A DNA stretch of 64,000 nt from a virus, in the IMG/VR virus record IMGVR_UViG_3300044742_000232, positions 1 to 64,000 of that record; one strand, given 5' to 3'. The position numbers and the translations under genes were made by a program. A model generated the notes under the pieces. The model saw only the letters and a program-made list of their open reading frames with translations. It was not told where the DNA came from and did not search any database. This document shows positions 3,352 through 59,863 of this stretch, piece after piece (the stretch's first letter is position 1; the number at the start of each line of letters is the position of its first letter).

Positions 3352-4907
3352 TATTGACCTTTCTTGGTCCTAGCATTTTGAAACATCTTTCCACGACTGC
3401 GATTATTTTCCCATTTCTTTCTGTTCCAAAACATAGTTCTAGAACTTGGAGGAACGGCTCTTGGATCGTTTTTATAGTGATCTTGATGAGGTAGGTCTGA
3501 ATCGGCGGTGTCTGCCCCAATTTCCCAAGCTTTATGTAGCTCATCCCATCTATTAATATGTCCACCACGGGCAAGATAATAATCTACTCCATTATATTGG
3601 CGTCCTTTATCATCACGCACAATTTCAGGCTGTTGCTGAATAACTTTTGGTTCAGGCATCGGAGGAAGTGGTGGCATCGGAGGCGGTCTTTTTTGGGCCT
3701 CTCTACCTGTTTTTTCTCTTGGAATCAAAGTGCCTGGAGAAGGTGTAGCACTAATATTTCCTCCAGCTAGGCGCTTTCTAGCTCTTGCCAGGGTTTTAGT
3801 TTCTTGTGGTTTTGTTTCAACAGGCGTGAATGTTGTTGCTGATGGTGGCGCTTTCACAAGAGCTTTAGCAATAAATGCACGTTCCTTGGCCGTTAGTTTA
3901 GTTGGCTTTGGTGGCGGCGTTGGTTTTGGAGCTAGTGTTTTTGCAGCTTTAGTTTTACCCTTTGCCTTTGGTTTCTTAGGTTTCGCTTGGGGGGCTGGTT
4001 TCTTTTTCTTAGTCGCAGCAAGTGCTTCTCTTTGAGATTTGACTTGAGCGCGAATGGCTTCAAGCTCGGCTTTGTGTTTCGCAGCAACAGCGGCTCGCTC
4101 TTGGCGTCTTACTTTTGCATGATACTGCTTTACACTGTCCCATTTTTTACGCTCTTGCACTGCGGTTTTCAAAGTTCTGGCAAGAGTATAAGGATGAAGA
4201 GTGCTCGCCGCAGCTTCAAATTCTCTTAGTTTTGGTTTTTTCTTACCACCCATAATATGCTTATGAATAATTTCTTTAGCATTAGTGGGCTTATTCTGTT
4301 TTGTACGTCTGGCACGTTCTGCACGGGCTTGCTGGCCAATTGAGTCCTTGCGTCTGGCTAGCTGTCCAAGCGTTCTTGCTGGTGTTCTTGCATTGACCAC
4401 ATAATTCTTTGCGGCTTCATCCAAACTCTCTTGTTGAGAAGCACGTTTGGCAGCAAAAAGTGGCGCATAATGCTCAACATATTTGTGCATAAATGAATTG
4501 AGATGAGGACCACCCTCTTGAGTAACATTATTAGGTTGCCAACCCTGACGATGCATTTCAACATTAGCAAGGGTAGCAGCATGTCTTAGAGTTGGAGGAA
4601 TGTCATGAACACCATCATGTAGATTATTTGAGTTCATTCTTTGATGCATTCTATTGACATGGTTCATCAGATGAGGAACATCACGCCAACGTCTTGCAGT
4701 TGAGTGTTGTTTTACTACTGGAGCAGATGCTTTTTGATCTACATGAAAAAATCGGCTACGTCTTATATCTCTAGCTTCAGCAATTCGTCTTATTAACGTT
4801 CGCGCCGCACTTGATTGATCCTTGTTTGAGGTGTCATCAATTGTTGGTTCTAAGTTTATAAAAGATTGTTGTTTCACTTGTCGCCTTTTTTTTGCCTTCT
4901 TTTTCAT
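3351..4907 (-). CDS. Lys/Pro-rich basic protein, putative internal head protein
   Basis: AAGGA RBS; IAEA, LDEA and LREF motifs; histone-like Lys/Pro/Ala tracts. Confidence 0.6.
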   Translation of the reverse strand: MKKKAKKRRQVKQQSFINLEPTIDDTSNKDQSSAARTLIRRIAEARDIRRSRFFHVDQKASAPVVKQHSTARRWRDVPHLMNHVNRMHQRMNSNNLHDGVHDIPPTLRHAATLANVEMHRQGWQPNNVTQEGGPHLNSFMHKYVEHYAPLFAAKRASQQESLDEAAKNYVVNARTPARTLGQLARRKDSIGQQARAERARRTKQNKPTNAKEIIHKHIMGGKKKPKLREFEAAASTLHPYTLARTLKTAVQERKKWDSVKQYHAKVRRQERAAVAAKHKAELEAIRAQVKSQREALAATKKKKPAPQAKPKKPKAKGKTKAAKTLAPKPTPPPKPTKLTAKERAFIAKALVKAPPSATTFTPVETKPQETKTLARARKRLAGGNISATPSPGTLIPREKTGREAQKRPPPMPPLPPMPEPKVIQQQPEIVRDDKGRQYNGVDYYLARGGHINRWDELHKAWEIGADTADSDLPHQDHYKNDPRAVPPSSRTMFWNRKKWENNRSRGKMFQNARTKKGQ

Positions 4908-6853: not shown

Positions 6854-8241
6854 TATTTGACATCCTCAAAAATACTTTTATCCATAGTTTCCCAATCCAG
6901 TTTTTGTCCAAAAGTAGTGGCATCCATCACGGGTCTTTCATCTATGATATCATCCTGTGCTGATTGTTCCGTGTCATAAAGTCTCATTTTTTTCTTATCA
7001 ACGCCAACCATAAATTTCCTGAAGTAATTTGGGTCCGAATATCTGTTCTTTAGCTGTTTCACCATGATTTGATTCATTTTTTCCAAGTCTTCGTTCGTGA
7101 TCAGAGTAAACATCAGATCGGTTGTTTGAGGAAGACCAACGCTATCGGAAGTGTTCTCCATATCAGGATCAGAGTTACGAAACCCTTGTCTATTGATTTG
7201 TGTCGCTGTAAAAACTGGAAGATTATATTCAACTGCAATACCCCGTAGTTCTTCCGCAACAGATTTCATATACATGTAAGTGTTGACATTACTCCCATAC
7301 TTCATTCTTGAAGACGCACAGATGTTTAAGTAGTCCACATAAATGATATCAGGAACAAAGTTCTTTTTGAGCTTCAATTCATCCAGGAGATGCCGGAAGT
7401 GATTAGAGCCAGCGCCAGAAGTTGGATACTCCTTGATAATTAGCTTTCCGTCTGTCTTCTGTTTCACTTTCATGATCTTGGCTGTATATTCTTCCTTGGA
7501 GAGCTTTTCTAGGTCTTCAATAGGAACATCCAACAAGTTTGCATCAATACGTTCGGCAATCCGTTCTTGAGCCATTTCTAGAGTGATATAAAGAACGTTA
7601 TGACCAGCTGAAAGATTGGCTGAAGCAAAGTGACAAAGAAACAGCGACTTACCGACCCCTGGAGGAGCCATAACAATAGTAAGAGTTTTTCTTGCAACTC
7701 CCCCGCGCGTAACTCTATTGAAAGTGTCTAGATCAAATGGTATCTTGTTTTCAGTTAGATGATACAATTCCCAACGTGAAACATAGTCATCAAAGAAGTC
7801 ATGACCGATTGCAGGATCGAAGGAAACGGCAAGAGCATCGGCAAAAAGTTTTGTAAGAACACCTTTATCCCCGAGCTTTCCAGCTTTATCATCAAGATAA
7901 GTAATTGATTTGCGAATGACATTATAGAGCGCCTTTTCTTTGCAAAATTCTTCCGTTCGCTTTACTAACCAATCAAGTTCAGTTTTCTCAGACACTTCCA
8001 GACTGCCAATTGTGGTTTGGCAGTCTGTGAAGTCTTCCTTTGATAAGTTTTCTTGGTTCGCTAGGTCTATATAGCAAATTTCTTTAGATGGTAGTGAATT
8101 GTATTTTGTTATAAAGTCCTGAACGATTGTGAATATAAGTTTGTCTGCGTTCTTATGAAAATACTCCGATTTCAAATAGGGGATTACTTTTCTAGCATAT
8201 TCCTCGTTGTGGAGGAGATGTGAAAGAATCAAATTTTCCAA
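6853..8241 (-). CDS. 41: Replicative DNA helicase gp41 (DnaB-like)
   Basis: Walker A APPGVGKS, LYITLEM, IIKEYPT, VDYLNI, TATQINR, KQLKNRY. Confidence 0.97.
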   Translation of the reverse strand: MENLILSHLLHNEEYARKVIPYLKSEYFHKNADKLIFTIVQDFITKYNSLPSKEICYIDLANQENLSKEDFTDCQTTIGSLEVSEKTELDWLVKRTEEFCKEKALYNVIRKSITYLDDKAGKLGDKGVLTKLFADALAVSFDPAIGHDFFDDYVSRWELYHLTENKIPFDLDTFNRVTRGGVARKTLTIVMAPPGVGKSLFLCHFASANLSAGHNVLYITLEMAQERIAERIDANLLDVPIEDLEKLSKEEYTAKIMKVKQKTDGKLIIKEYPTSGAGSNHFRHLLDELKLKKNFVPDIIYVDYLNICASSRMKYGSNVNTYMYMKSVAEELRGIAVEYNLPVFTATQINRQGFRNSDPDMENTSDSVGLPQTTDLMFTLITNEDLEKMNQIMVKQLKNRYSDPNYFRKFMVGVDKKKMRLYDTEQSAQDDIIDERPVMDATTFGQKLDWETMDKSIFEDVK

Positions 8242-8244
8242 TAA

Positions 8245-8571
8245 TTATCTCTCATGTTCAATCGCTTTATCTAAAGGTTGTGTGCGCCAGTCGGGCCAAG
8301 AGCGCAGTTCGTTTTTCTTCTGCTTGGCGACCAACGCAGTGATAATATCGTCTGGAGAGGCACCTTGGCGCCAAGCTCCATCTAGAGCTAGTATAACAAT
8401 ATCCATCCATTCTGACAAGTCATCTGGTTTGGATTCAACCTCAACTAGCTCCTTACGGATGTGATCAACAACTCCTTTAGTCCGATCACCTGGACCAAAT
8501 GTCTTCTTTGACCAAGCGCACTGCCGTTCTAGATGTTTTCTAAAATCAAAATCAATAACAAATCCAGCCAT
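8245..8571 (-). CDS. DUF550/MazG-like dATP/dGTP diphosphohydrolase
   Basis: WSKKTFGPG...HIRKELVEV...EWMDIVILALDGAWR...K.KKNELRSWPDWR signature. Confidence 0.8.
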   Translation of the reverse strand: MAGFVIDFDFRKHLERQCAWSKKTFGPGDRTKGVVDHIRKELVEVESKPDDLSEWMDIVILALDGAWRQGASPDDIITALVAKQKKNELRSWPDWRTQPLDKAIEHER

Positions 8572-9155
8572 TATCTCACTTTCTTGATCGCATTGAATAT
8601 ACCTTCATTGCCATTCATCTTGTTTTGATCAACTGGATGATATTGAGTGAGGCGCGCTTGAATTTTTTCATTCTCTTCAGTAAGTCTTCTATTTTCATCA
8701 ATAAGTACAGCAGCTTTATTTTGTAGATTCTTATGCTCTTGGTCAAGCTTTTGATACTTGGCTAGAGCCTTGATCAATCCTCCAAACATATGGAAAACAT
8801 ATTTATCTGAGGCAACAGATTCAACTGCTTTTGCGAAATCTCCAGTATAATTACCATCAGCAAAAACTGTAGCTACTTTCTCTCCAGTCTTGGGATTGTT
8901 GAAATTAATATCATTATTGCACCTGAAGTCGGCAACAAGTGTAATTTCAAATCTATCATCAGTTTGACTAGCTATTTGAACATTCGTTAGTTTTGGCATT
9001 GGTTTTGGAGGAGTATTATAAAATTGATTTCCTGCAATCGGTTCGACATATTGATTCTGCAACCATTCAGATGCAGATACTTTCTCCTTTTCGCCATAGT
9101 AAGAGATAAATTCATCCTTATTCACGTCATATGATGAGTGTTTCGTCTCAGCCAT
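8571..9155 (-). CDS. hypothetical protein with C-terminal coiled coil
   Basis: Overlaps the flanking genes; heptad pattern. Confidence 0.6.
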   Translation of the reverse strand: MAETKHSSYDVNKDEFISYYGEKEKVSASEWLQNQYVEPIAGNQFYNTPPKPMPKLTNVQIASQTDDRFEITLVADFRCNNDINFNNPKTGEKVATVFADGNYTGDFAKAVESVASDKYVFHMFGGLIKALAKYQKLDQEHKNLQNKAAVLIDENRRLTEENEKIQARLTQYHPVDQNKMNGNEGIFNAIKKVR

Positions 9156-10161
9156 TATTTTTCCTTTCTAGTGAATATTTGTTTTTAATCCAGGTAGCGA
9201 AATCAGTGTGTTCTAGCACTGTGTTCCAAAATTCGTCATTATTTACAATGTCAGCACGTTTATGTTTCTTGCTGGTGCTGTCACCCCTGAGTATCAAAGA
9301 GTGACCAGCCTTCTCAACATAACCAGCCTCAATAGCCAAGTCTAGCATACCTGACCACTTTTGTATACCACCATCATGCATAACAGTGATGGGAATGACA
9401 GATTTTTCTTTGACGTATCTAGACTTCTCAACGTTGATAATAAAGTGATAACCGATAACGTCTTTCTCTTCCTTCTCTTGACGGCGGCCGAGCATCCAAA
9501 TGTTATCTGAGCTATAGATTGATCCTGTGCCACCACCAACCACTTGTTTTGAAAACATCTCCAGTGTTTGATAGCTATGATTGACAACAATACAAGGCAA
9601 ATCTTTCATTGGAAAGTAGGGCTGAACCATTCGGAAAAACGATTTGAGAGCCTTCGCGCGGGCGCCAACATCAGCAACACTTTTGCCAGCAATTGCGTCA
9701 TCTAGTTCTTTTTTGGAAGCCAGACTACCAACCGAGTCAATAACAACTACAACTTTATCACCACGCTCAATCTTTTCCAATTGTCCGACCGCATCAATTT
9801 TCAACTTTTCAACGTTTACAAGAGGTGAATGCACTACTCTATCAGTTGCAATGTCAAACATCTCAAAGTAAGAAGGCGGCGTTCCAAACTCTGAATCATA
9901 AAAGAGCATTACACTGTCTGGATGTTTTTTTAGATAAGCAGACGCCAATAGCAAAGCAAACATAGACTTGAAGTGTTTGCTTGGTCCGCAGAGTTGAGTG
10001 ATTCCAGGCATCAAACCGCCTGTGATACTACCCGCGAGTGCAACATTGACCATGGGATAATCGGTTTGCACCATATCCCGTTCTTCATAAAACTTACTTT
10101 CGCCTAATATTGCAGTCTCTTCAATCGTTGAGTTTTGTAATAGTTTTTCTCTGAGCTTCAT
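9148..10161 (-). CDS. uvsX: RecA-like recombinase UvsX
   Basis: GPSKHFKS, FYDSEFG, IDSVGSLASKKE, GGGTG..YSSD, KSRYVKEK. Confidence 0.97.
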   Translation of the reverse strand: MKLREKLLQNSTIEETAILGESKFYEERDMVQTDYPMVNVALAGSITGGLMPGITQLCGPSKHFKSMFALLLASAYLKKHPDSVMLFYDSEFGTPPSYFEMFDIATDRVVHSPLVNVEKLKIDAVGQLEKIERGDKVVVVIDSVGSLASKKELDDAIAGKSVADVGARAKALKSFFRMVQPYFPMKDLPCIVVNHSYQTLEMFSKQVVGGGTGSIYSSDNIWMLGRRQEKEEKDVIGYHFIINVEKSRYVKEKSVIPITVMHDGGIQKWSGMLDLAIEAGYVEKAGHSLILRGDSTSKKHKRADIVNNDEFWNTVLEHTDFATWIKNKYSLERKNNG

Positions 10162-31240: not shown

Positions 31241-32949
31241 ACTGTTACCATTTGTGAGAAGTTATGAATTTTGCGAAACTCTAGAACCTTATCAAACTTA
31301 TCAAGAAACTGATCTGATTTGTGACTGATAACTAGCGTGTTTGTGTCGGGAGAAAGTAGTTTTATGATCTTAATCAAGTCATCCATACCATCATTATCCA
31401 AAGAGCTATCAAGAATCTCGTCAAAGATTAGGATATTGGTGCGAGCGGCGTTTCTCAACCGGCTAATCTCACGCCAAGTGAACATCAAAGCTAAATCAAT
31501 GCGCTTCTTTTCTCCTTCCGAAAAGGACTCATAATTAAACTCATCCCGAAATCTGGATTTGATCTTCTCATTGAAATTTTCATCCAAAGTAAACTGACAA
31601 AAGAAGTTCATCAACTCTAACGACTTATTAATGAGAGAATTCATAATAGGGATATATTGAGAAACGATTCGTGACTTTATACCACCATCCTTGAGTAATA
31701 CCAATGCCGAGTTGTAAAGTTCTCGTATCTTGATTTCTTCTTCTTTTTTAGTAAGGAAGGTCTGTCTCTCTGTTTCAAGTATGCCAATATCTTCCCCCTT
31801 TGTCTCATTCTTCGCTTTGCGCTTTTCAATCTCTTTTTCAATTTCCTTTATTTGCTGTTTATAAAGCTTCAATGCAGTTGATTTCTTTGTCAACTCATAA
31901 GTCGTTTCCATAGCCGTCTTAGTCAGTTCCCGGATACGACTCTCAGCTGTATTTACCGCATCTCTATTCTTTTGTTCTACATCCTTGACAATCTTATCTA
32001 GCGCCTCAATCTCAACCGTCTTGCTGATAATCACATCCTGACGATAAGCTTCATTGATTTCTTGTTTACATGTGGGACAGGTTGTGTTTTCTTCATAAAA
32101 GGCAATAGTATCATATAGTTTCTGGAGCTTATCGTTGGCTTGTTCACTGAGAGCAAGAATTTCATTAGCCTTCAAGGACTCTTTACGAGTCTTAGAGATT
32201 TGGGTTTCGGTTTGATCCTGCCTTACTTTTAGAAGTTCAATTTCTATGTTTTCGGCCGCGACCTTAATTTCATAATCCTTGATTCTATTCAGACATTCAT
32301 CAATCAGCACTTGATTATTCTGTTGCAATTCAAGAATGTGCTTCTTTGTCAAGTCAATTTTGGAATCACAGATAGCAATAGCTTGTTCAATATCAAGTAA
32401 GGCTGTTTTGTTTTCAGATACCTTATCTTTCAGTAGTGTAAACATTATGGAGAAGACTTGAGTATCAAGTAGGTCTTCAATCACTTCACGTCTAGCTTGA
32501 GCAGCCAGCTTCATGAAAGGCTGATAGTTCGCGGACCCAAGAATAACAATCTGTGTAAACGTTTTGAAGTTCATCTTAAGGATTTGTTTCTCAAGAATCG
32601 CTTGGTAATCTAGAGTTCCGGTTGTCTGATCTATAAGTTCTTCATTTCTGTATATCTCAAAGACATTAGGTTTCATGCCCCGGCGCACGAAGTATTTCTT
32701 ATCATTGATTTCAAACTCAACCTCCACCACCATATTCTTTTGAGTGATGGAGTTGATGAGCAGCGGTTTGTTGGTATTGCGAAACGATCTGTTATATAAA
32801 ACAAAGCATAACGCATCAATGAGCGTTGTCTTACCACAACCGTTTGGACCAACGATAAGAGAGGTTTTGTTAGCTGATAAATCTATCTCAGAGAAAGCAT
32901 TCCCATATGAGAGTAGATTTTTCCAGCGCAATAATTTAAAAACGATCAT
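31237..32949 (-). CDS. 46: Recombination endonuclease ATPase subunit gp46 (Rad50/SbcC-like)
   Basis: GPNGCGKTT, CPTC hook, FSEGEK, FDEILDSSLD, ISH. Confidence 0.97.
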   Translation of the reverse strand: MIVFKLLRWKNLLSYGNAFSEIDLSANKTSLIVGPNGCGKTTLIDALCFVLYNRSFRNTNKPLLINSITQKNMVVEVEFEINDKKYFVRRGMKPNVFEIYRNEELIDQTTGTLDYQAILEKQILKMNFKTFTQIVILGSANYQPFMKLAAQARREVIEDLLDTQVFSIMFTLLKDKVSENKTALLDIEQAIAICDSKIDLTKKHILELQQNNQVLIDECLNRIKDYEIKVAAENIEIELLKVRQDQTETQISKTRKESLKANEILALSEQANDKLQKLYDTIAFYEENTTCPTCKQEINEAYRQDVIISKTVEIEALDKIVKDVEQKNRDAVNTAESRIRELTKTAMETTYELTKKSTALKLYKQQIKEIEKEIEKRKAKNETKGEDIGILETERQTFLTKKEEEIKIRELYNSALVLLKDGGIKSRIVSQYIPIMNSLINKSLELMNFFCQFTLDENFNEKIKSRFRDEFNYESFSEGEKKRIDLALMFTWREISRLRNAARTNILIFDEILDSSLDNDGMDDLIKIIKLLSPDTNTLVISHKSDQFLDKFDKVLEFRKIHNFSQMVTV

Positions 32950-33015
32950 CTGAGTTGTTTATAGCTACAAAAAAGATAACAACGAAAATTGCAATGATGA
33001 ACAAAGCTACTAATG

Positions 33016-33261
33016 TCATTTTATAACATCACTCATGACTAATTGTTTCATTACTTCCACAACAATCTTTTCGGTTAGTAGCTCTGGATCATAATCTGTT
33101 TGGTTGATAAAAACTCCAGTTTCATAACCGACATAACGATCCTCTGCATGTGAGGAATCGCGATCATATCCTACTTCATATGTCGTATCCCGAAGAGCAT
33201 TTCTAATAATATCAGCAACGATATCCCAATTCACTTCTAACATAATATACCTTTTTATCAA
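33016..33261 (-). CDS. hypothetical protein
   Basis: ORF just after the tRNA. Confidence 0.5.
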   Translation of the reverse strand: MIKRYIMLEVNWDIVADIIRNALRDTTYEVGYDRDSSHAEDRYVGYETGVFINQTDYDPELLTEKIVVEVMKQLVMSDVIK

Positions 33262-33270
33262 TAATATTAT

Positions 33271-33350
33271 TGGTTGCGGGCCTCGGAGTTTGCACCGAGT
33301 TGCCTTCGGGTATGAACCGAAGTAAGATCACTAGCTACCTTCCACCCGCC
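33271..33350 (-). tRNA. tRNA-Met(CAT), initiator-like and atypical
   Basis: GGCGGGT/GCCCGCA acceptor with a 1:72 mismatch, TTCGG-TTCATAC-CCGAA anticodon arm, CTCGG-TGCAAACT-CCGAG T arm, encoded ACCA. Confidence 0.8.
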
Positions 33351-33357
33351 ATTCTAC

Positions 33358-33678
33358 TTAGTTTGCTTTGTCCCAAAACTCATCACATCGTTGCAGAGTC
33401 ATTAGGAGTTGTTCGCGACCATTTGGATTTTCTGTATGGATAGACCATTTCACACGCGGATGAGCATTATGTTTAGCCAGATGCTCCAGATAGTTTGCCA
33501 CGGCGATAGATTTGTCTTCGCCACCTAAGTCGTGATCAAAAGAAATCTCTTCTATCTGTGCTCCTATTGGATTCACAATATGTCGGGAAAAGATCACGAA
33601 ACAGTCATAACTTGTCTGCGCCCAAATCCAAGAGTCATCGGGCGGCTTGCGGTTGTCGTCAAACCAAATTTTAGGCAT
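33358..33678 (-). CDS. Cyclic-phosphate-processing receiver-like domain protein
   Basis: IWFDDNR.PP, ISFDHDLG, IHTENPNG. Confidence 0.75.
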   Translation of the reverse strand: MPKIWFDDNRKPPDDSWIWAQTSYDCFVIFSRHIVNPIGAQIEEISFDHDLGGEDKSIAVANYLEHLAKHNAHPRVKWSIHTENPNGREQLLMTLQRCDEFWDKAN

Positions 33679-34246
33679 CTTTCTTCTTCTCCATCGCTAT
33701 TACACCATATCTCGTTTTGTAGCCAAGCATCGGTTGAAAACTATCAGGACTAATAGCAAACATATAATCAAGAGGAATATACGGACAAACCTTATAACCT
33801 TTACTTTCTATTTGATCCCATTCGTTTGCTAGTTCCGCACACACAGTATCAAACAATTGTTTTTTTGCAGCCTCAACTCCAATTGTTGCTTTCAAATCTT
33901 GGGCAAACTCTATAGGATTAGATTCTTTCAACGCCCTTGTCATTGCAAAGACAGTTTGATCTTGTATTTGAGCTTTTGGACCAGTCATAATAAAATCTGG
34001 ATGAAAGAACCTCGGATAACGATTCATCATTGCAATCGTGCATTCAAACATGCTTGTATTTCTCAAGATATTGAAATCCATATTCTCTTTATATTGAGCT
34101 ATCAGCGTATTGCTTATCATCGCCAACGATTTGAAGGCTTCCGCAAATGTGAGTTCTTCGGTGGCGCTGGCAAAGGCGGCTCCAGCGGGCATGGCAGCAG
34201 CACCAAGAGCCGCAGGCGTGAGAACTAAGAAGTTGCGGCGCTTCAT
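33671..34246 (-). CDS. Twin-arginine signal peptide fused to an internally deleted gp23 major capsid paralog
   Basis: MKRRNFL plus hydrophobic core; blocks MTGP, TRALK...EFAQDLKA and CPYIPL...PDSFQPMLGYKTRYG match this genome's gp23. Confidence 0.8.
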   Translation of the reverse strand: MKRRNFLVLTPAALGAAAMPAGAAFASATEELTFAEAFKSLAMISNTLIAQYKENMDFNILRNTSMFECTIAMMNRYPRFFHPDFIMTGPKAQIQDQTVFAMTRALKESNPIEFAQDLKATIGVEAAKKQLFDTVCAELANEWDQIESKGYKVCPYIPLDYMFAISPDSFQPMLGYKTRYGVIAMEKKKDA

Positions 34247-34261
34247 GGGGTTCTCCTCTCC

Positions 34262-35317
34262 TTACTCCATCATCATCGCGCCATTATACAGGTCCGTCAT
34301 CAGTTTATCAAGCCTGTTTTTATCAACTTGCACATTTGATTCTTCCACGAACTTTCTGATAATCGCCATCGTGTTTTCCGGCTGACCATCGAAAGTGTCA
34401 ATCACCGCAGAGGACAAAACTTTATCCTCAAGGATTTTCACGTCTATCGCATACTTCTCCAGCGCATCAATAAACATGTCAAAATGATAGGGATTAGTCT
34501 TAGCCATCACCAGCACTTTCACATAACAATCCTGGAACGTATCAAAGTCCCAATTCAACACTTGATCCAAAGACTGCCCCTGATCGTCATAAACAATCTT
34601 GTGATATATTTCTTTTGGGTTGCGAATGAATTCCAATTGAAGAGTATCCGTGTCTAGAGTGTGGAATCCTTTGGGGGAATCGTAGTCTGCCCATGTGATC
34701 TGGTAAGGTGCTCCAAGATAAGTGATTGCACCGTTACTCTGTCTTTTATGAATGTGACCTGACGCCACAAGGCTAAATTTAGTAAAAAGAGAAATATCAA
34801 GGCCACGATCAATAACATATCCAGCATGTGATTCAAATCCTTTCAGTTCCAAGTGGCCAAAGCAAATTTTCGCGTCTGTTTTTTCAATAAGCTCTAAGGA
34901 ACGTTTTTCATTATCTAAACAAATCCAAGGCAGAAACAAAATCTTCGCCCAAGTAAACTTCATCTCCGTTGGTTCTGTGATGATTGAGAACTTCAATCCC
35001 TCACGACTTTGCATCAACTCATTTATAGAGTTTACTTCCAGGGAGTTGGTATGATATGCGTCATGGTTGCCTATAATGAAATAGACATAGTTATTGTGTA
35101 GCTTTTCTATAAAGTGTCTACGAACAAAATTTATTGTAGATATGTTTGCATACTTGCGACGATCAAACACATCCCCGAGAACAAATATATCCCGAATGCC
35201 ATTTTTCTTGATATAGGGGAAAAATTGCGTCTCTAGGAATTTTTTAGTATGCTCTAGAAGAACTGGGTTGTCATTCCTTGCCCCAAAATGTAGATCACTT
35301 ATTATCGCTACGCGCAT
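34262..35317 (-). CDS. 47: Recombination endonuclease nuclease subunit gp47 (Mre11/SbcD-like)
   Basis: SDLHFG, LGDVFDRRK, GNHD, GHLE, SGHIH. Confidence 0.96.
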   Translation of the reverse strand: MRVAIISDLHFGARNDNPVLLEHTKKFLETQFFPYIKKNGIRDIFVLGDVFDRRKYANISTINFVRRHFIEKLHNNYVYFIIGNHDAYHTNSLEVNSINELMQSREGLKFSIITEPTEMKFTWAKILFLPWICLDNEKRSLELIEKTDAKICFGHLELKGFESHAGYVIDRGLDISLFTKFSLVASGHIHKRQSNGAITYLGAPYQITWADYDSPKGFHTLDTDTLQLEFIRNPKEIYHKIVYDDQGQSLDQVLNWDFDTFQDCYVKVLVMAKTNPYHFDMFIDALEKYAIDVKILEDKVLSSAVIDTFDGQPENTMAIIRKFVEESNVQVDKNRLDKLMTDLYNGAMMME

Positions 35318-35756
35318 CGTTCTCCTCTACATTATATTCAAACTCTTTTGGACCATCTACTGTTTGCATCGTAACCTTCATAGTTTTTGAAGTCTTTTCT
35401 CCATCAAAAGTCACATTCGCAGTTTCCTCTTCAACCAGCATACTCACGGGTGAAGGTTTTGTTATCGCGGTTTGGGCATCATCTTCTTCTTGACGTAACC
35501 GTTTCCAATGCTCGCGCAGCAGCCAAACAATGATCCGGCCTTCAGCATATTCAGTTACGATTTGATTGCGACAGAACTTATCAAATTCCTCAAAGCTCCC
35601 TTCAATGGAGCCATCTTCTTTCAATATGATTTCATAACCTGTATTTGGGAGTTTGACAAGCACAGGTAAGATATAAAAGGTTTCGGGAAAAATCACCCCT
35701 TTGCGGACATTGCTATAAATCTTCTTGATCCAGCCAAACATAAGGATGCCTCCCAC
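35295..35756 (-). CDS. hypothetical protein
   Basis: In the gene run. Confidence 0.55.
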   Translation of the reverse strand: MGGILMFGWIKKIYSNVRKGVIFPETFYILPVLVKLPNTGYEIILKEDGSIEGSFEEFDKFCRNQIVTEYAEGRIIVWLLREHWKRLRQEEDDAQTAITKPSPVSMLVEEETANVTFDGEKTSKTMKVTMQTVDGPKEFEYNVEENDARSDNK

Positions 35757-35970
35757 GAAAAGGGTTTAGCGTTGTTTTGTTTTAGCCCTTTTATAGGTTT
35801 TGTCAAGATAATTTTGCCGCGACGTGCGATATTTTATTATCTCTTCCTGACAAGCAGAAACAACGGATTCCAACATCATTATAACGTTGTCCTTTACATG
35901 CTGTGGAGAGGTAGGACTTCTTAGTGTCTCAATCCAATTTTCAATAATAGGCGGGACAGTATACTTAGTA

Positions 35971-36378
35971 TTAGGTGCAGCCAACTTCTTCTTTCTTTCT
36001 TTTCTTTTTGAAAACAGATATGTCAAGCTTATACTTATCAGCAATTCTTAGCATATCATTCTTCCACAAAGTTTTCCACTCTTTACAATCAGCAGGACCA
36101 TCATGAGCATTTTGTAAATCTTCAAGTAAAAATCTATAACGAGGATCGGTCATACAAGCTGGTAATTTTACTTTCTCTCTTTCTGCATTTTCTACTAAAT
36201 TATTAATACCACCAACAATAGTAGCAGCAAACTTTAGTTGTTTCTGATTTGTAAGAAGCCAGCCAACAGCACAGCGACGACCATCCTCAGTTACATATTG
36301 ACATCCTTTATCCCAAGCCTCTTTTCCTTGCTCCAAAAGAGAGATAGCTACTTTATCAAAGATTTGCTGATGTTTCAT
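35971..36378 (-). CDS. hypothetical protein, paralog A1
   Basis: QQIFDKVA..LL.QG, C.Y...GRRCAVGWLL, LQNAHD; start MKHQQ. Confidence 0.7.
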   Translation of the reverse strand: MKHQQIFDKVAISLLEQGKEAWDKGCQYVTEDGRRCAVGWLLTNQKQLKFAATIVGGINNLVENAEREKVKLPACMTDPRYRFLLEDLQNAHDGPADCKEWKTLWKNDMLRIADKYKLDISVFKKKRKKEEVGCT

Positions 36379-53386: not shown

Positions 53387-54837
53387 ATGGCAGCAGCACC
53401 AAAAACAAACCAAGTCATAACAGCATTTGAAGCCATTGAAATTGTCCAAGAACAACTGGATTACGTTATTCTGAGGCTTGCTAGTATGCGCGATGAGGCT
53501 TGTTTGAAAAGGGTTGAAAGCTCCCATCTCACGATCAAAAATCTCCTACAAGACCTGAGAGAAGCTGGAAGATGAATATATTTTGGAAGAAGATTCATAA
53601 GGTGAAGATTGATTTTACTCCCCAAGAAGGAATCACTCCTCTTCTCGTGGCCAAAATTATGAAATGGTGGGTAACTTGTAACATTTGGAATGGAGCCATG
53701 TTTGATGTTGCTTCTTATAGTCATCTTATAGAAGAGATTCCCAATGAGCAGTTCCCTCATTTGACATTTTATGATGTGGAATATGATGAGCATAGGGTAA
53801 TTTTCAGGCGACGTAACTATAAACAAACAGAATGGAAGCCAAGGTAAAAACGATGCCCTTCAATCATCCAGTTCCGTCTTTGAAGTATGTTACATTTCTC
53901 GATGCTTTTGAGGAAATGGTTACTCAGAAGCAAAAAGAAATCAATGACATGAGAGAAATGGAACAGGTCTATAGTATCTGTTCCAACGCTCTCAACTTTT
54001 CGGAAATCAGTGTTCCCGTAAAAGTTATTTGGGGTCCAGGTTGGATTCGGATGCAATCTAATCTTACCAAAGAGACTTGCATTGATACATATAAATTTCT
54101 TCGGGAAATCATAACTACACGATTATTTGAAGCTGGACTTATTGGTTCAGATAAGATTCCTGAAGCACGTTTTGCAACTTATCTAATCTTTTTCACTTGG
54201 CGCATCGAGAGAAAAGGAAAGATGCGCCCAGTGGAAGTTGATTTGCGTCTAGAGATTCCTTATGCATATCGTGATAAAGTAGGCGCTTCAAAATATATTG
54301 ATATAACAACTCGGGAAGAAACTAATAGATATACGATTCCAAGGTTTCGCTGCACAGAACCAGGATATGAGCATGAGTGGGAATAACACAGCTATCTTTG
54401 AGATTACGTCTGACATAGCAGAATTTTTTTCTGTTATGACTGTGTTATTAGCAAAATTTATACATATAGAACATTTGATTGAAGACCATCCTAATGCAAA
54501 TTTATTGATTTCTGGAGAAAGAGCTTTATTACTTCATAACAAACTTACGCATGCTTGGAAACAATATAATAAAATAATATGTCACAAAGATAAAGATGCT
54601 TATGATCTTATCCGTCATCTTCATAAAAAAGTGAAGGAGATAAATTCTGTTATTTCATTAGCTCAAGTAACTTATAGACCAATAACAAAAAATACATCCA
54701 TTATAAAAATACGACTCAAAATAAGATTTATTCATCAGCTACAAAAATTGGTAGGAGAAGTGCCTGATTTTGAGAGTATTGAAAAAGAAGTTATGGATTA
54801 TATGGATTCTTTGGCACGAATGACTCGCACGCCTTAG
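53387..54837 (+). other. Four hypothetical CDS (53387-53575, 53572-53847, 53832-54386, 54367-54837)
   Basis: Overlapping co-oriented ORFs behind a promoter. Confidence 0.6.
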
Positions 54838-57046: not shown

Positions 57047-57208
57047 ATCTTTTCTCCGTTGTTGGGTGGGTAGGCTTTCTAAGATGGATGCTTTGTAACA
57101 TGACTATACTGTAATGTCAATTGGAAATATTGATGGGTATTAAAAAAAATGGCGGCCTGATAAAAGACCGCCGAGTTTGGGGCAAAACTTTGGGAGTTGT
57201 TTTCTCTC

Positions 57209-57472
57209 CTACTGTCCGGTGCCTCCAACGCGCCGATCTTGGAAGTCCCAGAACAGTACCGGGTTGCCGGAACTGTAGGGATCACGGACGGTGCGGACCT
57301 TGCCAGCCTTGGTGCCAGCACGGTTGATCCACATGTCATAGAAGCCCGGCCCTGGCGCGCTGGAAGAGCCCATGGACTTCTTGTTGTCCTTGGCCGTCTG
57401 CGCCTGAACGCCGCTGGAAACTGCAACCAAAGAGGCTGTAGCAACCAGCACGGCCATCACACTGATCTTCAT
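57209..57472 (-). CDS. Small secreted protein
   Basis: Signal peptide ending VQA-Q; GGAG RBS. Confidence 0.65.
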   Translation of the reverse strand: MKISVMAVLVATASLVAVSSGVQAQTAKDNKKSMGSSSAPGPGFYDMWINRAGTKAGKVRTVRDPYSSGNPVLFWDFQDRRVGGTGQ

Positions 57473-57521
57473 ACAATTTTCTCCATTGAGTTAGGGGCTT
57501 TCAATCTCGCCCATAAAAGTC

Positions 57522-57550
57522 AATATAAAGAATCGGGGAACGAAAGTCAA
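57522..57550 (-). promoter_or_regulatory. Sigma70-type promoter
   Basis: TTGACT-17 nt-TATATT. Confidence 0.65.
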
Positions 57551-57564
57551 GCGTTCACAAAAAG

Positions 57565-57593
57565 TTGACTGAGAAGTCTATGTATGATAAAAT
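57565..57593 (+). promoter_or_regulatory. Sigma70-type promoter, probably yielding a leaderless mRNA
   Basis: TTGACT-17 nt-TAAAAT; ATG begins 7 nt after the -10. Confidence 0.7.
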
Positions 57594-57599
57594 GTAAAA

Positions 57600-58436
57600 A
57601 TGGATATTGTTTACAGATTCTTGAATCTCAGTAGTGGAAAGAGCTACATTGGGCGAACGAATATGGGGCTTGAGCCGCGTTTTCGTGCTCATGTTTATGC
57701 TTGGCAGCGTTGTAAAAAGAGACGCATGTGCAAGCTGTATTGGGCCTTTCGCAAGTATGGAACAGAGTGCTGGAAGCTTGAGGTGTTGGAGGAGTGCGCC
57801 AGTCTAGAGGAATCCAAGATCAGGGAAATAGAGTTGATTGCGGAATATGATGCTATCAAGAGCGGATATAACATGCAAAAAGGTGGCGATAGTGGATTGG
57901 CGGGAATGAAGCTAAGGAAAGGGCATAAGAAGGCTATTTCATCTTCAAGGAAAATATGGTTTCAGACTGAGGATGGAGATAGATGGAAAGAGGAGTTACG
58001 AAAAAAAACTAAAGGAAATAAGTATGGCGCTTTGCGAAAAAATACAAATCTATCTGAGGAAACCAAAAGAAAAATTAGTGAAGGTAATCGCGGTAAGGAA
58101 AGAACAGATATACAACGTGAAGTATTTTCTGATGAAATGAAACGTAGATGGGATTCTGGTGTTTACGACAATAGACCAGCAATGTCTGAAGAAACAAAAA
58201 GAAAAATAGCAATATGGAATGTTGGTAAGAAAAATACTGAAAGACAGAAACGGGTTGCAACAGAAGTTAATCAAAAGAAATGGGAAATAACTTTTCCTGA
58301 TGGGCATACTGAAGTTGTTATAAATCTAAGAAAATGGTGTCTAGAGAATGGATTAGATCAAGGTAATTTATCGCGCACACATTCTGGTAATGGAAAATCA
58401 AAACATAAGGGGTATTGGGCAAGAAAATTGGAATAA
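57600..58436 (+). mobile_element. GIY-YIG homing endonuclease with NUMOD3 repeats (segD-like position)
   Basis: IVY...SGKSYIGRT, GYN..GG, repeated SEETKRKI; convergent with gene 23. Confidence 0.88.
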
Positions 58437-58489: not shown

Positions 58490-59863
58490 TCACATAAGAT
58501 GTTGAACGAGGAACTTTCTGTAATAAACGTTTGAATCTACTACGATTGTGCCACCACCAGCAGTTAGACCTTGAGCGAATGGGTTAGCAGTCATACCATA
58601 ACGTGTCTTGAATCCGACCCGAGGTGTGAATGAATCTGGACGAACCGCATTCATTAGCTGTAGAGGAACGTAGGGGCAATAGAAGATACCAGCATCAAAA
58701 GCTGACTGTCCTTTATAGCCGACGTTGATATACTGGCCACCTGAAGAGTATGGATCAATGAAACACTTAATCTTTCCGTTCAGGACACCAATAAAGGTAG
58801 AACCTGTATCGTCTGGATTTAGGTTATTTTGTAGAGCAGGCGTATAATCAAGAACCTGTGCAGCTTGTAGAGCGGAAGCTACGTCCGAAGTCATAATGGC
58901 AATATTGCCTTTCCCTCTACGGGTAGACTTCGCTAGAGCGTTACATTCACGATCTAGTTGATACATTAGACCTTTCCATTTCTCAACGGACCAACGGCCA
59001 TTTGAGTCGGTATCAAGATCAAAGAAACCAGCAGTTGTAGTGTCTTCCTGACAACCAACTGTAGCAGCTAGGTTGACGGTGCGAACAACTTCACGATTGA
59101 TTTCCGCAAGGATTTCAGTTGAAAGAATGTTGATAAGTTCAGCGCGAGCATCCATACCATGAACTGCTTTCAAGTCTTGTGCGAGTTCTAGCGTGTATTC
59201 CGCAGCTAGCGCACGAGTTTTGGCAGTAACAGTATTTTTCTCAATGCTGAAAGCCATCTGAGCAAAATCAGAGTTAGAATCAGTTCCCAACGCTTCACCT
59301 TGCGCTGTTGACATTGCACCACCGTAGTTGTAGATGCCGGTCGCAGCGAGGTTTGAAACAGCAGTTGAGTTACCAGGGAGTGATCCAACATGCTTCAAGC
59401 CAAGGGTGTTAGCGCCAGAAAGGATTGAGCTAAACATCGTGTTGACTTCGTTATAAAAAGTCTCTGAACCAGTCTGGTTAGTATACCGAGAACGCATCGC
59501 AAAGATAAGACCAGTTGGACCTGTCATAGGCTGAACGCCAACAATGTCATAGGCAACTAGATTAGGAGCGGCACGTCTAACCATTGAGATTAGAATTGGG
59601 TCAAAGGTGTCAATTGCACCTGTTGAAGGATCGGAGCTAGAACCAGCCATCATGTTTACAGGAATGGCGGCTTCGTCCAATCTCATGTTCTGTGGAATGT
59701 GAACACGATCCTCACTAAGAGCCTGTTGAGTATTTTCCAACATAATCGCGGTACACATTGCGCGATGGTTGTCCCGAATCTTGGGCATCTCCTTATGATT
59801 AAGGATACCATCCCATTTTTGCTTCAGTAGTTCCATTTCATTTAACATTCTCTTCTGAGACAT
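58490..59863 (-). CDS. 23: Major capsid protein gp23
   Basis: GVQPMTGPTGLIFAMR, TRALAAEYTLELAQDLKAVHG, FYCPYVPL, GFKTRYG. Confidence 0.98.
   Translation of the reverse strand: MSQKRMLNEMELLKQKWDGILNHKEMPKIRDNHRAMCTAIMLENTQQALSEDRVHIPQNMRLDEAAIPVNMMAGSSSDPSTGAIDTFDPILISMVRRAAPNLVAYDIVGVQPMTGPTGLIFAMRSRYTNQTGSETFYNEVNTMFSSILSGANTLGLKHVGSLPGNSTAVSNLAATGIYNYGGAMSTAQGEALGTDSNSDFAQMAFSIEKNTVTAKTRALAAEYTLELAQDLKAVHGMDARAELINILSTEILAEINREVVRTVNLAATVGCQEDTTTAGFFDLDTDSNGRWSVEKWKGLMYQLDRECNALAKSTRRGKGNIAIMTSDVASALQAAQVLDYTPALQNNLNPDDTGSTFIGVLNGKIKCFIDPYSSGGQYINVGYKGQSAFDAGIFYCPYVPLQLMNAVRPDSFTPRVGFKTRYGMTANPFAQGLTAGGGTIVVDSNVYYRKFLVQHLM

Follow-up and report, generated by a model that had tools for sequence, protein, structure and literature searches.

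We analysed a window of 64,000 nt (positions 1 to 64,000 of IMG/VR record IMGVR_UViG_3300044742_000232) from a soil T4-like phage, in which an intact ORF of 191 aa on the minus strand, here called mini-gp23, lies between gene 47 and gene 46 (SbcC-like: phrog_77, E 9.9e-146), with two more small ORFs separating it from gene 46. As the earlier note had described, the predicted protein starts with MKRRNFL and has an Ala-rich core and an AFA site. The features of the locus, together with the full-length gp23 of the same phage, are as follows:

34262..35317, minus strand: gene 47 (SbcD-like), the upstream neighbour (phrog_100, E 1.9e-95).
34283..34311, minus strand: sigma-70-type promoter-like site TTGATA-17-TATAAT (11/12 matches), in the 3' end of gene 47 and ending 37 nt before the mini-gp23 ATG.
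34253..34261, minus strand: Shine-Dalgarno sequence GGAGAGGAG, read from the sequence; it adjoins the stop codon of gene 47 and precedes the mini-gp23 ATG by 6 nt.
33671..34246, minus strand: mini-gp23 gene, P0002 (ORF list and translation; Pfam Gp23 51.4 bits; family profile A2 185 bits).
34169..34246, minus strand: predicted Tat-type signal peptide, residues 1-26, with n-region MKRR and a putative AFA/SA cleavage site read from the sequence.
34226..34243, minus strand: twin-arginine motif K-R-R-N-F-L, residues 2-7 (RR in 16/18 leader-bearing family members).
33977..34036, minus strand: candidate block 1 (residues 71-90, IAMMNR..MTGP), corresponding to residues ~92-115 of the phage's own gp23, at the end of the N-arm and the start of I-domain linker 1.
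33812..33970, minus strand: block 2 (residues ~93-145), the returning strand and P-domain spine helix (BLASTP; gp23 HMM 187-237, iE 1.8e-8).
33692..33799, minus strand: block 3 (residues ~150-185; CPYIPL...GYKTRYG), the C-terminal P-domain beta-strands (BLASTP; gp23 HMM 373-407, iE 2.5e-12).
33358..33678, minus strand: downstream gene of 106 aa (phrog_1479), whose ATG overlaps the last codons of the mini-gp23 gene (ATGCCTAA).
58490..59863, minus strand: full-length major capsid protein gp23, P0001, 457 aa (PF07068 451 bits), 24 kb from mini-gp23.

The mini-gp23 gene has its own strong ribosome-binding site and a translational overlap with the next gene. The TTGATA-17-TATAAT site, a consensus match only, is the best of 12 promoter-like sites in 32800-36200, where such sites are not enriched overall (12 vs 9.5 +/- 3.0 in shuffles); both hexamers are also present in the relative L004, and TATAAATA is absent within 15 kb of the mini-gp23 gene. 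No RNA runs were listed with this stretch, which gives no evidence either way on expression. Two soil metagenomes contain it in full and may be its source. The GC3 of the leader is 0.61 vs 0.34 for the rest of the gene, a level reached by 3.9% of 649 equal windows, and in the sister gene the leader is again the part with the higher GC3, though less markedly (0.40 vs 0.25); we read this bias as an amino-acid/codon effect and set aside a foreign origin of the leader via recent capture. In the nearest relatives, L004 and L005 (gp47 87% identical), there is no mini gene after gene 47, and the phrog_1479 gene follows gene 47 directly. The mini-gp23 gene forms a compact accessory cassette whose insertion falls exactly at the junction of gene 47 with the gene that follows.

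The profile match to gp23 is clear. PF07068 (Gp23) matched mini-gp23 with 51.4 bits (cut-off 24.4, E 1.5e-13) in two collinear stretches, at positions 135-187 and 320-354 of 376, and phrog_138 (major head protein) matched with E 9.4e-12; Pfam, PHROG and NCBIfam together gave Gp23, a weak Tat match and nothing else. By BLASTP, residues 154-184 align with residues 396-426 of the phage's own gp23 at 61% identity (E 3e-12), and residues 94-145 with residues 207-257 at 38% identity (E 7e-7); this gp23 is itself 64.8% identical to that of Stenotrophomonas phage DLP6. Three collinear gp23 blocks had been proposed, of which blocks 2 and 3 stand on these matches, while block 1 alone gave no significant HMM match to gp23. 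Block 1 finds its support at the family level, where P0084 matched the gp23 HMM at 72-110 (iE 1.7e-3) and, in the A2 alignment, its 'QPMQGP' is aligned to the family 'MTGP' column. The comparison of the family with gp23 by hhalign gave E 6.6e-30 for the top block.

Block 2 maps to T4 gp23 254-306 in 6uzc, and block 3 maps to mature T4 gp23 380-416 in 8t9r_A; the domain names used here are taken from the available part of PMC9546572. In that part of the paper, T4 gp23 residues 292, 306 and 307 belong to the spine helix, and gp31-bypass mutations are given at 292, 306, 307 and 455, the last of which is placed within block 3 by our own +65 conversion (65-residue propeptide). Residues ~116-206, 258-395 and 427-457 of the phage's own gp23 have no counterpart in the 191-aa protein, and mini-gp23 has no insertion (E-loop-equivalent) domain, A domain, C-terminal tail or recognisable propeptide. 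The earlier note had taken the missing segments to be probably the insertion/E-loop and the A domain; HMM, BLASTP and PDB mapping bear this out and place the blocks that are kept in the P-domain core. Residues invariant in gp23 are kept within blocks 2 and 3 in 33-94% of the minis aligned there, with the exception of His235, which is kept in only 4/25 and which a 47-residue offset equates with T4 His282, a contact of the portal whisker in the available text of PMC9546572. The conservation of motifs in the minis may simply reflect the folding core, and the ESM Atlas model of mini-gp23 is poor (pLDDT 0.47; TM 0.45 to a gp23 cluster). According to the alignments, mini-gp23 derives from gp23 by internal deletion, with the order of the blocks unchanged, the P-domain core kept and a putative remnant of the N-arm.

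An exhaustive HMMER search gave 130 matches at E<=1e-3, of which 49 are small proteins whose alignment covers the core as a single stretch and three more are tandem forms. The family comprises ~50 small proteins of 112-264 aa with the same deletions, and two- and three-domain tandem forms. Mini-gp23 itself can be aligned without a break across the ~115-aa core, has both of the internal deletions that set the family apart from gp23, and matched P0003 over residues 1-183 (E 1.2e-50) and P0005 over residues 1-182 (E 4.9e-17). PF07068 is matched at E<=0.01 by 49/50 aligned members (P0002 included); block 3 falls at ~371-407 of the gp23 HMM in 49/50 members and block 2 at ~187-243 in 29/50 (both iE<0.01). 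A protein of 2447 aa (P0004, 14 stretches) was dropped from the set as a repetitive protein of surface type whose 'DPSSFQPFLGY' repeat matches by chance.

Mini-gp23 had been taken for a paralog of this phage's own gp23, which does not hold in any recent sense: since it scored 50.4 bits against its own gp23, 49.0 against the best foreign gp23 and 188 against another mini protein, it is not a recent copy of its own gp23 and belongs to an old family. In a 'quick' tree of 55 rows, in which 26/52 forks are open and the outgroup is limited to five gp23 sequences that are close to one another, the mini family forms one side of a 100* branch against these five sequences, and the median end branch is 0.9, compared with 0.1-0.34 for the five gp23 rows; one clade of 12 members is entirely leaderless. 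The scores and the tree point to an old, fast-evolving and unnamed family of gp23 derivatives keeping only the P-domain core, and P0002 is almost certainly a real functional member of it. That the gene is a non-functional remnant, either a gp23 duplicate in decay after internal deletions or an ORF that arose by chance, is hardly credible and is already contradicted by the conservation of the family. Such a remnant would fit the rarity of the family and a word-index search without a close homologue, but the frame is intact, with a strong Shine-Dalgarno sequence and the overlap with the next gene, ~50 diverged clusters share the deletion boundaries, and gp23-invariant residues are retained. Moreover, ORFs are intact in ~50 clusters at <=50% identity, as they are in 10/10 close variants of the sister cluster, among which the changes are mostly conservative.

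At the N-terminus, mini-gp23 carries R-R-x-hydrophobic-hydrophobic, then an uncharged, Ala/Gly-rich h-region of 25 residues (peak 10-residue Kyte-Doolittle 1.93) and an A-x-A end. A leader is present in 18/50 aligned family members and absent in 32/50; 18/18 leaders are twin-basic (16 RR, 2 KR) with an AxA-like site, and 0/18 are Sec-type. Given the K/R usage of the family, the probability of at least 16 RR among 18 is 3e-9 (binomial), and K is the commoner residue in the mature parts (183 K vs 163 R). The RR pair is kept in all three nearest relatives, P0003, P0005 and P0006, and in 10/10 close variants of the sister cluster, and the h-regions of the 18 leaders are Ala/Gly/Thr/Pro-rich with a hydropathy of 1.4-2.4. 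The leader is Tat-like, as the earlier note had suggested, in motif, hydropathy and conservation in homologues, on which our reading is based, but it stays below the cut-offs of the curated models: TIGR01409 gave 10.1 bits vs a cut-off of 16.7 (E 0.88), PF10518 gave no match at E<=10, and across the family at most 3/50 members match PF10518 (E<=0.01) and 4/50 match TIGR01409 (E<=1).

On this pattern the leader is probably a working Tat signal. That it is instead a Sec signal or a membrane anchor left uncleaved is a minority reading, to which the curated Tat HMMs below threshold, the short length of 26 aa and the lack of a phage tatA in the 90-kb record (49% complete) would lend themselves. It is opposed by the twin-basic pair, which none of the 18 leaders lacks and which is RR in 16 of them despite K exceeding R in the mature parts, by the hydrophobic residues that follow the pair as in RRxFL/RRxLL, and by the modest hydropathy of the Ala/Gly/Thr/Pro-rich h-regions. 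No other credible RR-leader ORF was found in the 90-kb record. Periplasmic adaptation of the mature parts was considered and rejected, as leader-bearing members, with 1.31 Cys per 100 aa, do not differ from leaderless ones, with 1.21 (P 0.75), nor do the two groups differ in Cys parity or pI (5.57 vs 5.42). Because 32/50 family members are leaderless, the predicted export is a derived feature, gained or lost repeatedly.

The distribution of the family is patchy. A sister copy (P0133, 52% identical) is located on the sister contig at a different locus, between two genes that overlap each other in this phage's window, and there is one mini copy each in this phage and its relative. In another phage (L037), mini-type genes are located inside the head module, beside a short gp23-like gene, which suggests a structural role for at least that clade. 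The word-index search with a single query returned only mini-gp23 itself, the tool being too insensitive for this family, and with the family profile it returned 6 matches, 3 of which had already been placed in the family. Scans of viral contigs with P0002, P0009, P0011 and P0019 gave no mini gene, a metagenome scan with P0009 gave only a full gp23, and megablast of 33000-35400 against phages gave no match. By tblastn with five members (P0002, P0133, P0032, P0009 and P0007) against 50,697 phage records, only full-length gp23 was found, and seven promising rows (H1, H4, H66, H82, H83, H86 and neighbours) each fell within a capsid gene of 1.4-1.7 kb; these queries cover 5 of ~50 members and do not by themselves establish absence from cultured or deposited phages. 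In GTDB, which was scanned with a 10-member sub-alignment (pattern Px[VI]GFKTRYG; 80 loci kept), 0/80 gp23-centred loci had a clear mini gene within 6 kb. The HMM scan of the ORFs in these loci gave 72 large gp23-type matches and 6 small ones, 5 of which read as fragments of full-length gp23, with gp23 A-domain or spine-helix sequence at the start and, in three cases, a start in the very first bases of their locus; the remaining one is a weak match of 85 aa (E 3.9e-4). The mini-gp23 cassette is accessory, mobile and fast-evolving, which is conflict-like behaviour.

Among known proteins, mini-gp23 has significant homology to T4 gp23 and its vertex paralogue gp24 (PF07068; PDB 6UZC, 7VS5, 5VF3, 8T9R, 1YUE). 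It shares the spine helix, the C-terminal beta-strands and most gp23-invariant residues with gp23 and, like gp24, gives its genome a further gene derived from gp23; unlike gp23, it has only ~40% of the length, has lost a gp23-invariant His, carries an export-type N-terminal leader and lies outside the late head-gene module, in surroundings of early type. The early T4 envelope proteins Sp (spackle), Imm and antiholin RI are small, signal-bearing and made during infection; they serve in conflict between phages or in the timing of lysis from outside the cytoplasm, and use Sec-type or SAR-type signals. To our knowledge, none of them is derived from a virion protein. Mini-gp23 resembles them as a small phage protein with a predicted signal sequence, but has no sequence similarity to them in Pfam or PHROG. 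With bacterial Tat signal peptides it shares R-R-x-F-L, the weakly hydrophobic Ala/Gly-rich h-region and the A-x-A end, whereas it differs from them in sitting on a capsid-derived cargo without cofactor in a lytic-type phage. In the accessible text of a Tat review (PMC13673990, 2026), 'phage' is mentioned 4 times, never for a phage-encoded Tat cargo. Our literature search, supplements aside, turned up no report of a capsid-protein gene that is miniature or leader-tagged and, within the portions of the papers that were accessible, no phage-encoded capsid decoy or stand-in.

The earlier note had suggested three candidate roles: a decoy for capsid-sensing defences, an assembly poison against competing phages and superinfection exclusion. 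If the leader is functional, mini-gp23 could be an envelope-level exclusion factor, its mature P-domain fragment countering phages that enter or co-infect the cell from a place in the periplasm or on the inner membrane, much as early T4 proteins such as Sp and Imm do. The Tat-type leader with its cleavage site, a promoter-like site that suits early expression and the accessory, mobile and fast-evolving nature of the gene all agree with such a role, which we nevertheless regard as unlikely. The family core function is probably cytoplasmic, because 32/50 members are leaderless, including one whole clade of 12; mini-gp23 is also without similarity to any exclusion protein, Pfam and PHROG giving gp23 only. 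We know of no periplasmic target of a capsid P domain, and capsids stay outside the cell.

A head-assembly accessory, in which the P-domain module would bind gp23 P domains, the scaffold or GroEL/gp31 and would tune or tether prohead assembly at the membrane, appears rather improbable. Blocks 2 and 3 are P-domain elements making inter-capsomer contacts, and the gp31-bypass sites of T4 gp23 fall in the same blocks (PMC9546572, available part), and the mini-type genes in the head module of L037, the tandem 2- and 3-domain forms and the single copy kept in this phage and in its relative speak for it as well. Against it, the gene is located in the recombination/replication region behind a sigma-70-type site, outside the late module, and the conserved RR favours Tat recognition over a plain anchor. 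Moreover, with no clear mini gene near gp23 in the 80 GTDB loci and only full gp23 from five members by tblastn in the phage records, the family is far too patchy for a core assembly role.

The reading we favour, at less than even odds, is that mini-gp23 is a capsid mimic or decoy. It would be transcribed early from the near-consensus sigma-70-type promoter, long before late gp23, and would fold in the cytoplasm. Since the A domain, which forms the capsomer core, is missing, it would be unable to build capsomers, and it would show the most conserved gp23 surface to a partner that normally reads that surface, without building or triggering anything. The partner would most probably be an immune protein of the host that senses capsids. 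In the branch with leaders, the host Tat system would recognise RRNFL and move the protein out of the cytoplasm, with cleavage after AFA, so that the Tat route would take the mimic out of the cytoplasm.

Capsid-sensing immunity systems such as CapRel SJ46, Lit/Gol and MCP-binding Avs are triggered by major capsid proteins, according to the portions of the sources available, and are possible targets of mini-gp23. Avs-type defence sensors were reported to bind conserved capsid core folds, with variable extensions unbound (bioRxiv 10.64898/2026.01.04.697583, available part). The activator of Lit is Gol, a region of 29 residues within the first quarter of gp23 that the accessible text of PMC3014915 calls the most conserved of gp23. 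In the mini family, no part is less conserved than block 1, which also has a deletion. Block 1 is the part of the mini protein nearest to the presumed place of Gol, and a decoy of the Lit/Gol type is unlikely because the candidate Gol equivalent is both poorly conserved and deleted in part.

A decoy that leaves the cytoplasm seems self-defeating unless its partner goes along. One version of the mimic reading is a Tat 'hitchhiker' eviction, in which the mimic would bind a cytoplasmic capsid sensor, drag it to the periplasm and disarm the defence before late gp23 is made; we consider it a long shot. As Tat exports folded complexes, the partner would be co-exported; leaderless relatives would be plain cytoplasmic sponges and tandem forms multivalent sponges. 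Such an eviction would account both for signal peptides that are exclusively of Tat type and for the gain and loss of leaders on a single conserved core.

Capsid proteins are major triggers of bacterial immunity, and this phage retains the best-conserved portion of its head protein in a pared-down copy that looks early-expressed and has moved as a cassette. A third of the family carries a leader, and only ever of the folded-protein (Tat) export type. Export would make mini-gp23 one of few Tat cargoes encoded by a phage and would mean that a virion fold has been put to new use in the cell envelope; a mimic would offer a direct way to find the partners that read the conserved gp23 core. In either case, the family provides ~50 natural variants for simple tests.

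The small gene between genes 47 and 46 of this phage is intact and encodes a conserved derivative of gp23 that is P-domain-only and carries a Tat-like leader; it is a cassette that has been moved about and lies in an early-type context. The features of the window that bear on it are:

33671..34246, minus strand: mini gene, open frame of 191 codons (ORF translation)
6 nt 5' of its ATG, minus strand: Shine-Dalgarno sequence GGAGAGGAG (sequence reading)
34283-34311, minus strand: sigma-70-type site TTGATA-17-TATAAT, 11/12 matches, the best in 32800-36200
58490..59863: gene for the phage's own gp23, 457 aa

The frame opens 15 nt past the stop codon of gene 47 (SbcD-like, PHROG match E 1.9e-95), and the ATG of the next gene (phrog_1479, 106 aa) overlaps its final codons; gene 46 is SbcC-like (E 9.9e-146). 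A pseudogene reading is effectively excluded. The record is an IMG/VR contig of 90,474 bp rated 49% complete, and among public runs only two soil metagenomes hold this DNA in full, which may be its source. Its own gp23 shares 64.8% identity with that of Stenotrophomonas phage DLP6 and about 58% with that of Methylophilales phage Melnitz. Adjoining gp23 on the opposite strand is a 278-aa ORF (57600-58436, plus strand), the start of which (…YIGRT…) resembles a GIY-YIG homing-endonuclease motif. At 57079-57568 two overlapping Arg/Ala/Pro-rich ORFs, on both strands, fill a segment that in translation looks unlike the AT-rich remainder of the window. The matching place on a related viral contig (L025:11315-11638) has a gene for a 107-aa protein bearing a Sec-type signal peptide.

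The match to gp23 proposed in the earlier note was borne out, with Pfam Gp23 scoring 51.4 bits (cut-off 24.4, E 1.5e-13) over two stretches and phrog_138 also matched. By BLASTP, residues 154-184 of mini-gp23 aligned with 396-426 of the own gp23 (61% identity, E 3e-12) and, collinearly, 94-145 with 207-257 (38% identity, E 7e-7). Block 1 (IAMMNR..MTGP) is not significant for mini-gp23 by itself and is backed only via one family member (P0084, gp23 HMM 72-110, iE 1.7e-3). The family profile matched residues 254-306 of the T4 gp23 structure (6UZC numbering) and 380-416 of the mature chain 8T9R_A. According to PMC9546572, the capsomer core of T4 gp23 is the A domain (e.g. 381, 387, 420) and the HK97 E-loop role is taken by the insertion domain and linkers. 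Taken with this domain context, the block mapping indicates that mini-gp23 keeps the P-domain core; the insertion and A domains are missing, as had been proposed, and so is the C-terminal tail.

A word-index homologue search returned the query alone. When 1.84 billion representatives were searched exhaustively with HMMER, 130 matches reached E<=1e-3, and 49 of these were small proteins (112-264 aa) with the core aligned in one stretch; the best, P0003, was 50% identical over its full length (E 1.2e-50), and P0005 was among the best (E 4.9e-17). Three further matches were tandem forms, P0017 (449 aa, three domains), P0023 (316 aa) and P0039 (298 aa, two domains each), which are leaderless fusions of mini-gp23 domains whose repeats each open with an 'HP(L/I)xxN'-like motif common to many single-domain leaderless members. 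One match, P0004 (2447 aa, NCBI/ENA, 5.9-Mb contig), is a repetitive surface-type protein of giant size and was rejected because its E value of 3.6e-18 was owed solely to a 'DPSSFQPFLGY' repeat present 14 times. The remaining 77 were of gp23 length or shorter pieces aligned solely at the C-terminal block, and 29 of them formed our gp23 reference set.

Among the 50 aligned members, mini-gp23 included, 49 matched PF07068 at E<=0.01, with block 3 at gp23 HMM ~371-407 in 49 and block 2 at ~187-243 in 29 (iE<0.01 for both), so that the deletion boundaries are common to the family. A quick ML tree was built on 55 rows and resolved poorly, 26 of its 52 forks being open; in it a branch labelled 100* split the 50 minis from five gp23 sequences; end branches had a median of 0.9, and those of the gp23 rows were 0.1-0.34. 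The own gp23 was the best gp23 match of mini-gp23 by a narrow margin (50.4 vs 49.0 bits). Shared boundaries, tree and near-equal scores therefore identify the mini gene as an old family member, and its supposed origin as a recent duplicate of this phage's own gp23 is rejected. Of the minis that align at blocks 2 and 3, 33-94% retained the residues invariant there in gp23, with one exception: His235 of the own gp23 (~59159-59161, minus strand), invariant in 30/30 gp23, was kept in 4/25 minis and is the sole such residue given up by the family. By a 47-residue offset it corresponds to T4 His282, which contacts the portal whisker (PMC9546572). A sister cluster (P0133-P0141) comprised ten variants at least 90% identical, most of whose substitutions fell in one ~30-residue part of block 2, where they make up two alternative haplotypes; this suggests recombination or local diversification.

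In 18 of the 50 members the protein opens with a leader: its n-region is basic, the stretch behind this is uncharged and rich in Ala/Gly/Thr/Pro (peak hydropathy 1.4-2.4), and its end is AxA-like. All 18 had a twin-basic pair immediately N-terminal of the hydrophobic part (16 RR, 2 KR; for 16/18 RR, P = 3e-9 given the 183 K and 163 R of the mature parts), and none had a Lys-only, Sec-type n-region. RR was present in all three nearest relatives of the query and in 10/10 close variants of the sister cluster. Leaders were clustered on the tree, not monophyletic (6 changes vs 15.2 in shuffles, 0/500 as low), and absent throughout one clade of 12. Counting against Tat, TIGR01409 gave mini-gp23 only 10.1 bits of the 16.7 needed and PF10518 nothing at E<=10; across the family they matched 4/50 and 3/50, the mature parts showed no compositional shift, and neither tatA nor a second RR-leader ORF was found in the 49%-complete record. 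In the available part of a 2026 Tat review (PMC13673990), phage appears in unrelated contexts only.

Two IMG/VR contigs (L004, L005) with gp47 87% and gp46 89% identical to those of this phage carry a 109-aa gene 12 nt past gene 47, and the mini gene is nowhere on them. A sister gene, P0133, 52% identical, lies on L025, which is from the same sample as L004, and also on L026; there it separates the homologues of two genes of this window, 53832..54386 and 54367..54837, which here overlap with nothing inserted. Flanking genes are 49-89% identical, so that 52% is at the variable end and no outlier. The sigma-70-type site lies in the 3' part of gene 47, which is conserved, and ends 37 nt 5' of the mini gene ATG. 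L004 (~4005-4035) has the same near-consensus site in the last codons of its gene 47, and in both phages this may give the genes behind gene 47 an early start of their own. Such sites were not enriched overall in 32800-36200 (12 vs 9.5 +/- 3.0 in shuffles). TATAAATA, the T4 late motif, occurs only three times in the window, never within 15 kb of the mini gene.

A full-text literature search found no description of a miniature or leader-tagged capsid-protein gene. We propose that mini-gp23 would be synthesized early, fold in the cytoplasm, be transferred by Tat, lose its leader after AFA and be unable to form capsomers. That it acts as an envelope-level exclusion factor is rather unlikely. A role as head-assembly accessory seems less probable still; it is favoured by the gene layout of contig L037 (IMGVR_UViG_3300032061_000007), where mini-type genes precede a gp23-like gene and a head-tail adaptor:

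7200-9733 region of L037: two tandem mini-type genes of ~260 aa, one being P0016, with the gp23-like gene behind them

Both mini-type proteins combine blocks 1-3 with an additional domain at the N terminus; directly downstream come a 314-aa gp23-like protein which includes the A-domain part (phrog_138, E 2e-20), the adaptor and then a virion protein, and the capsid fold there seems spread over several short paralogues within the head module. Of the roles weighed we tentatively favour mimicry, in which mini-gp23 may present the conserved gp23 surface to a partner able to read it; capsid-sensing immunity is the most likely such partner. Avs sensors reportedly bind capsid proteins by their conserved core folds (bioRxiv 10.64898/2026.01.04.697583), and 'hitchhiking', in which partners are co-exported via Tat, is named in a title cited in PMC13673990. 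On this reading, members lacking a leader would serve as sponges in the cytoplasm, and in the others the leader would carry the mimic, perhaps its partner too, out of it.
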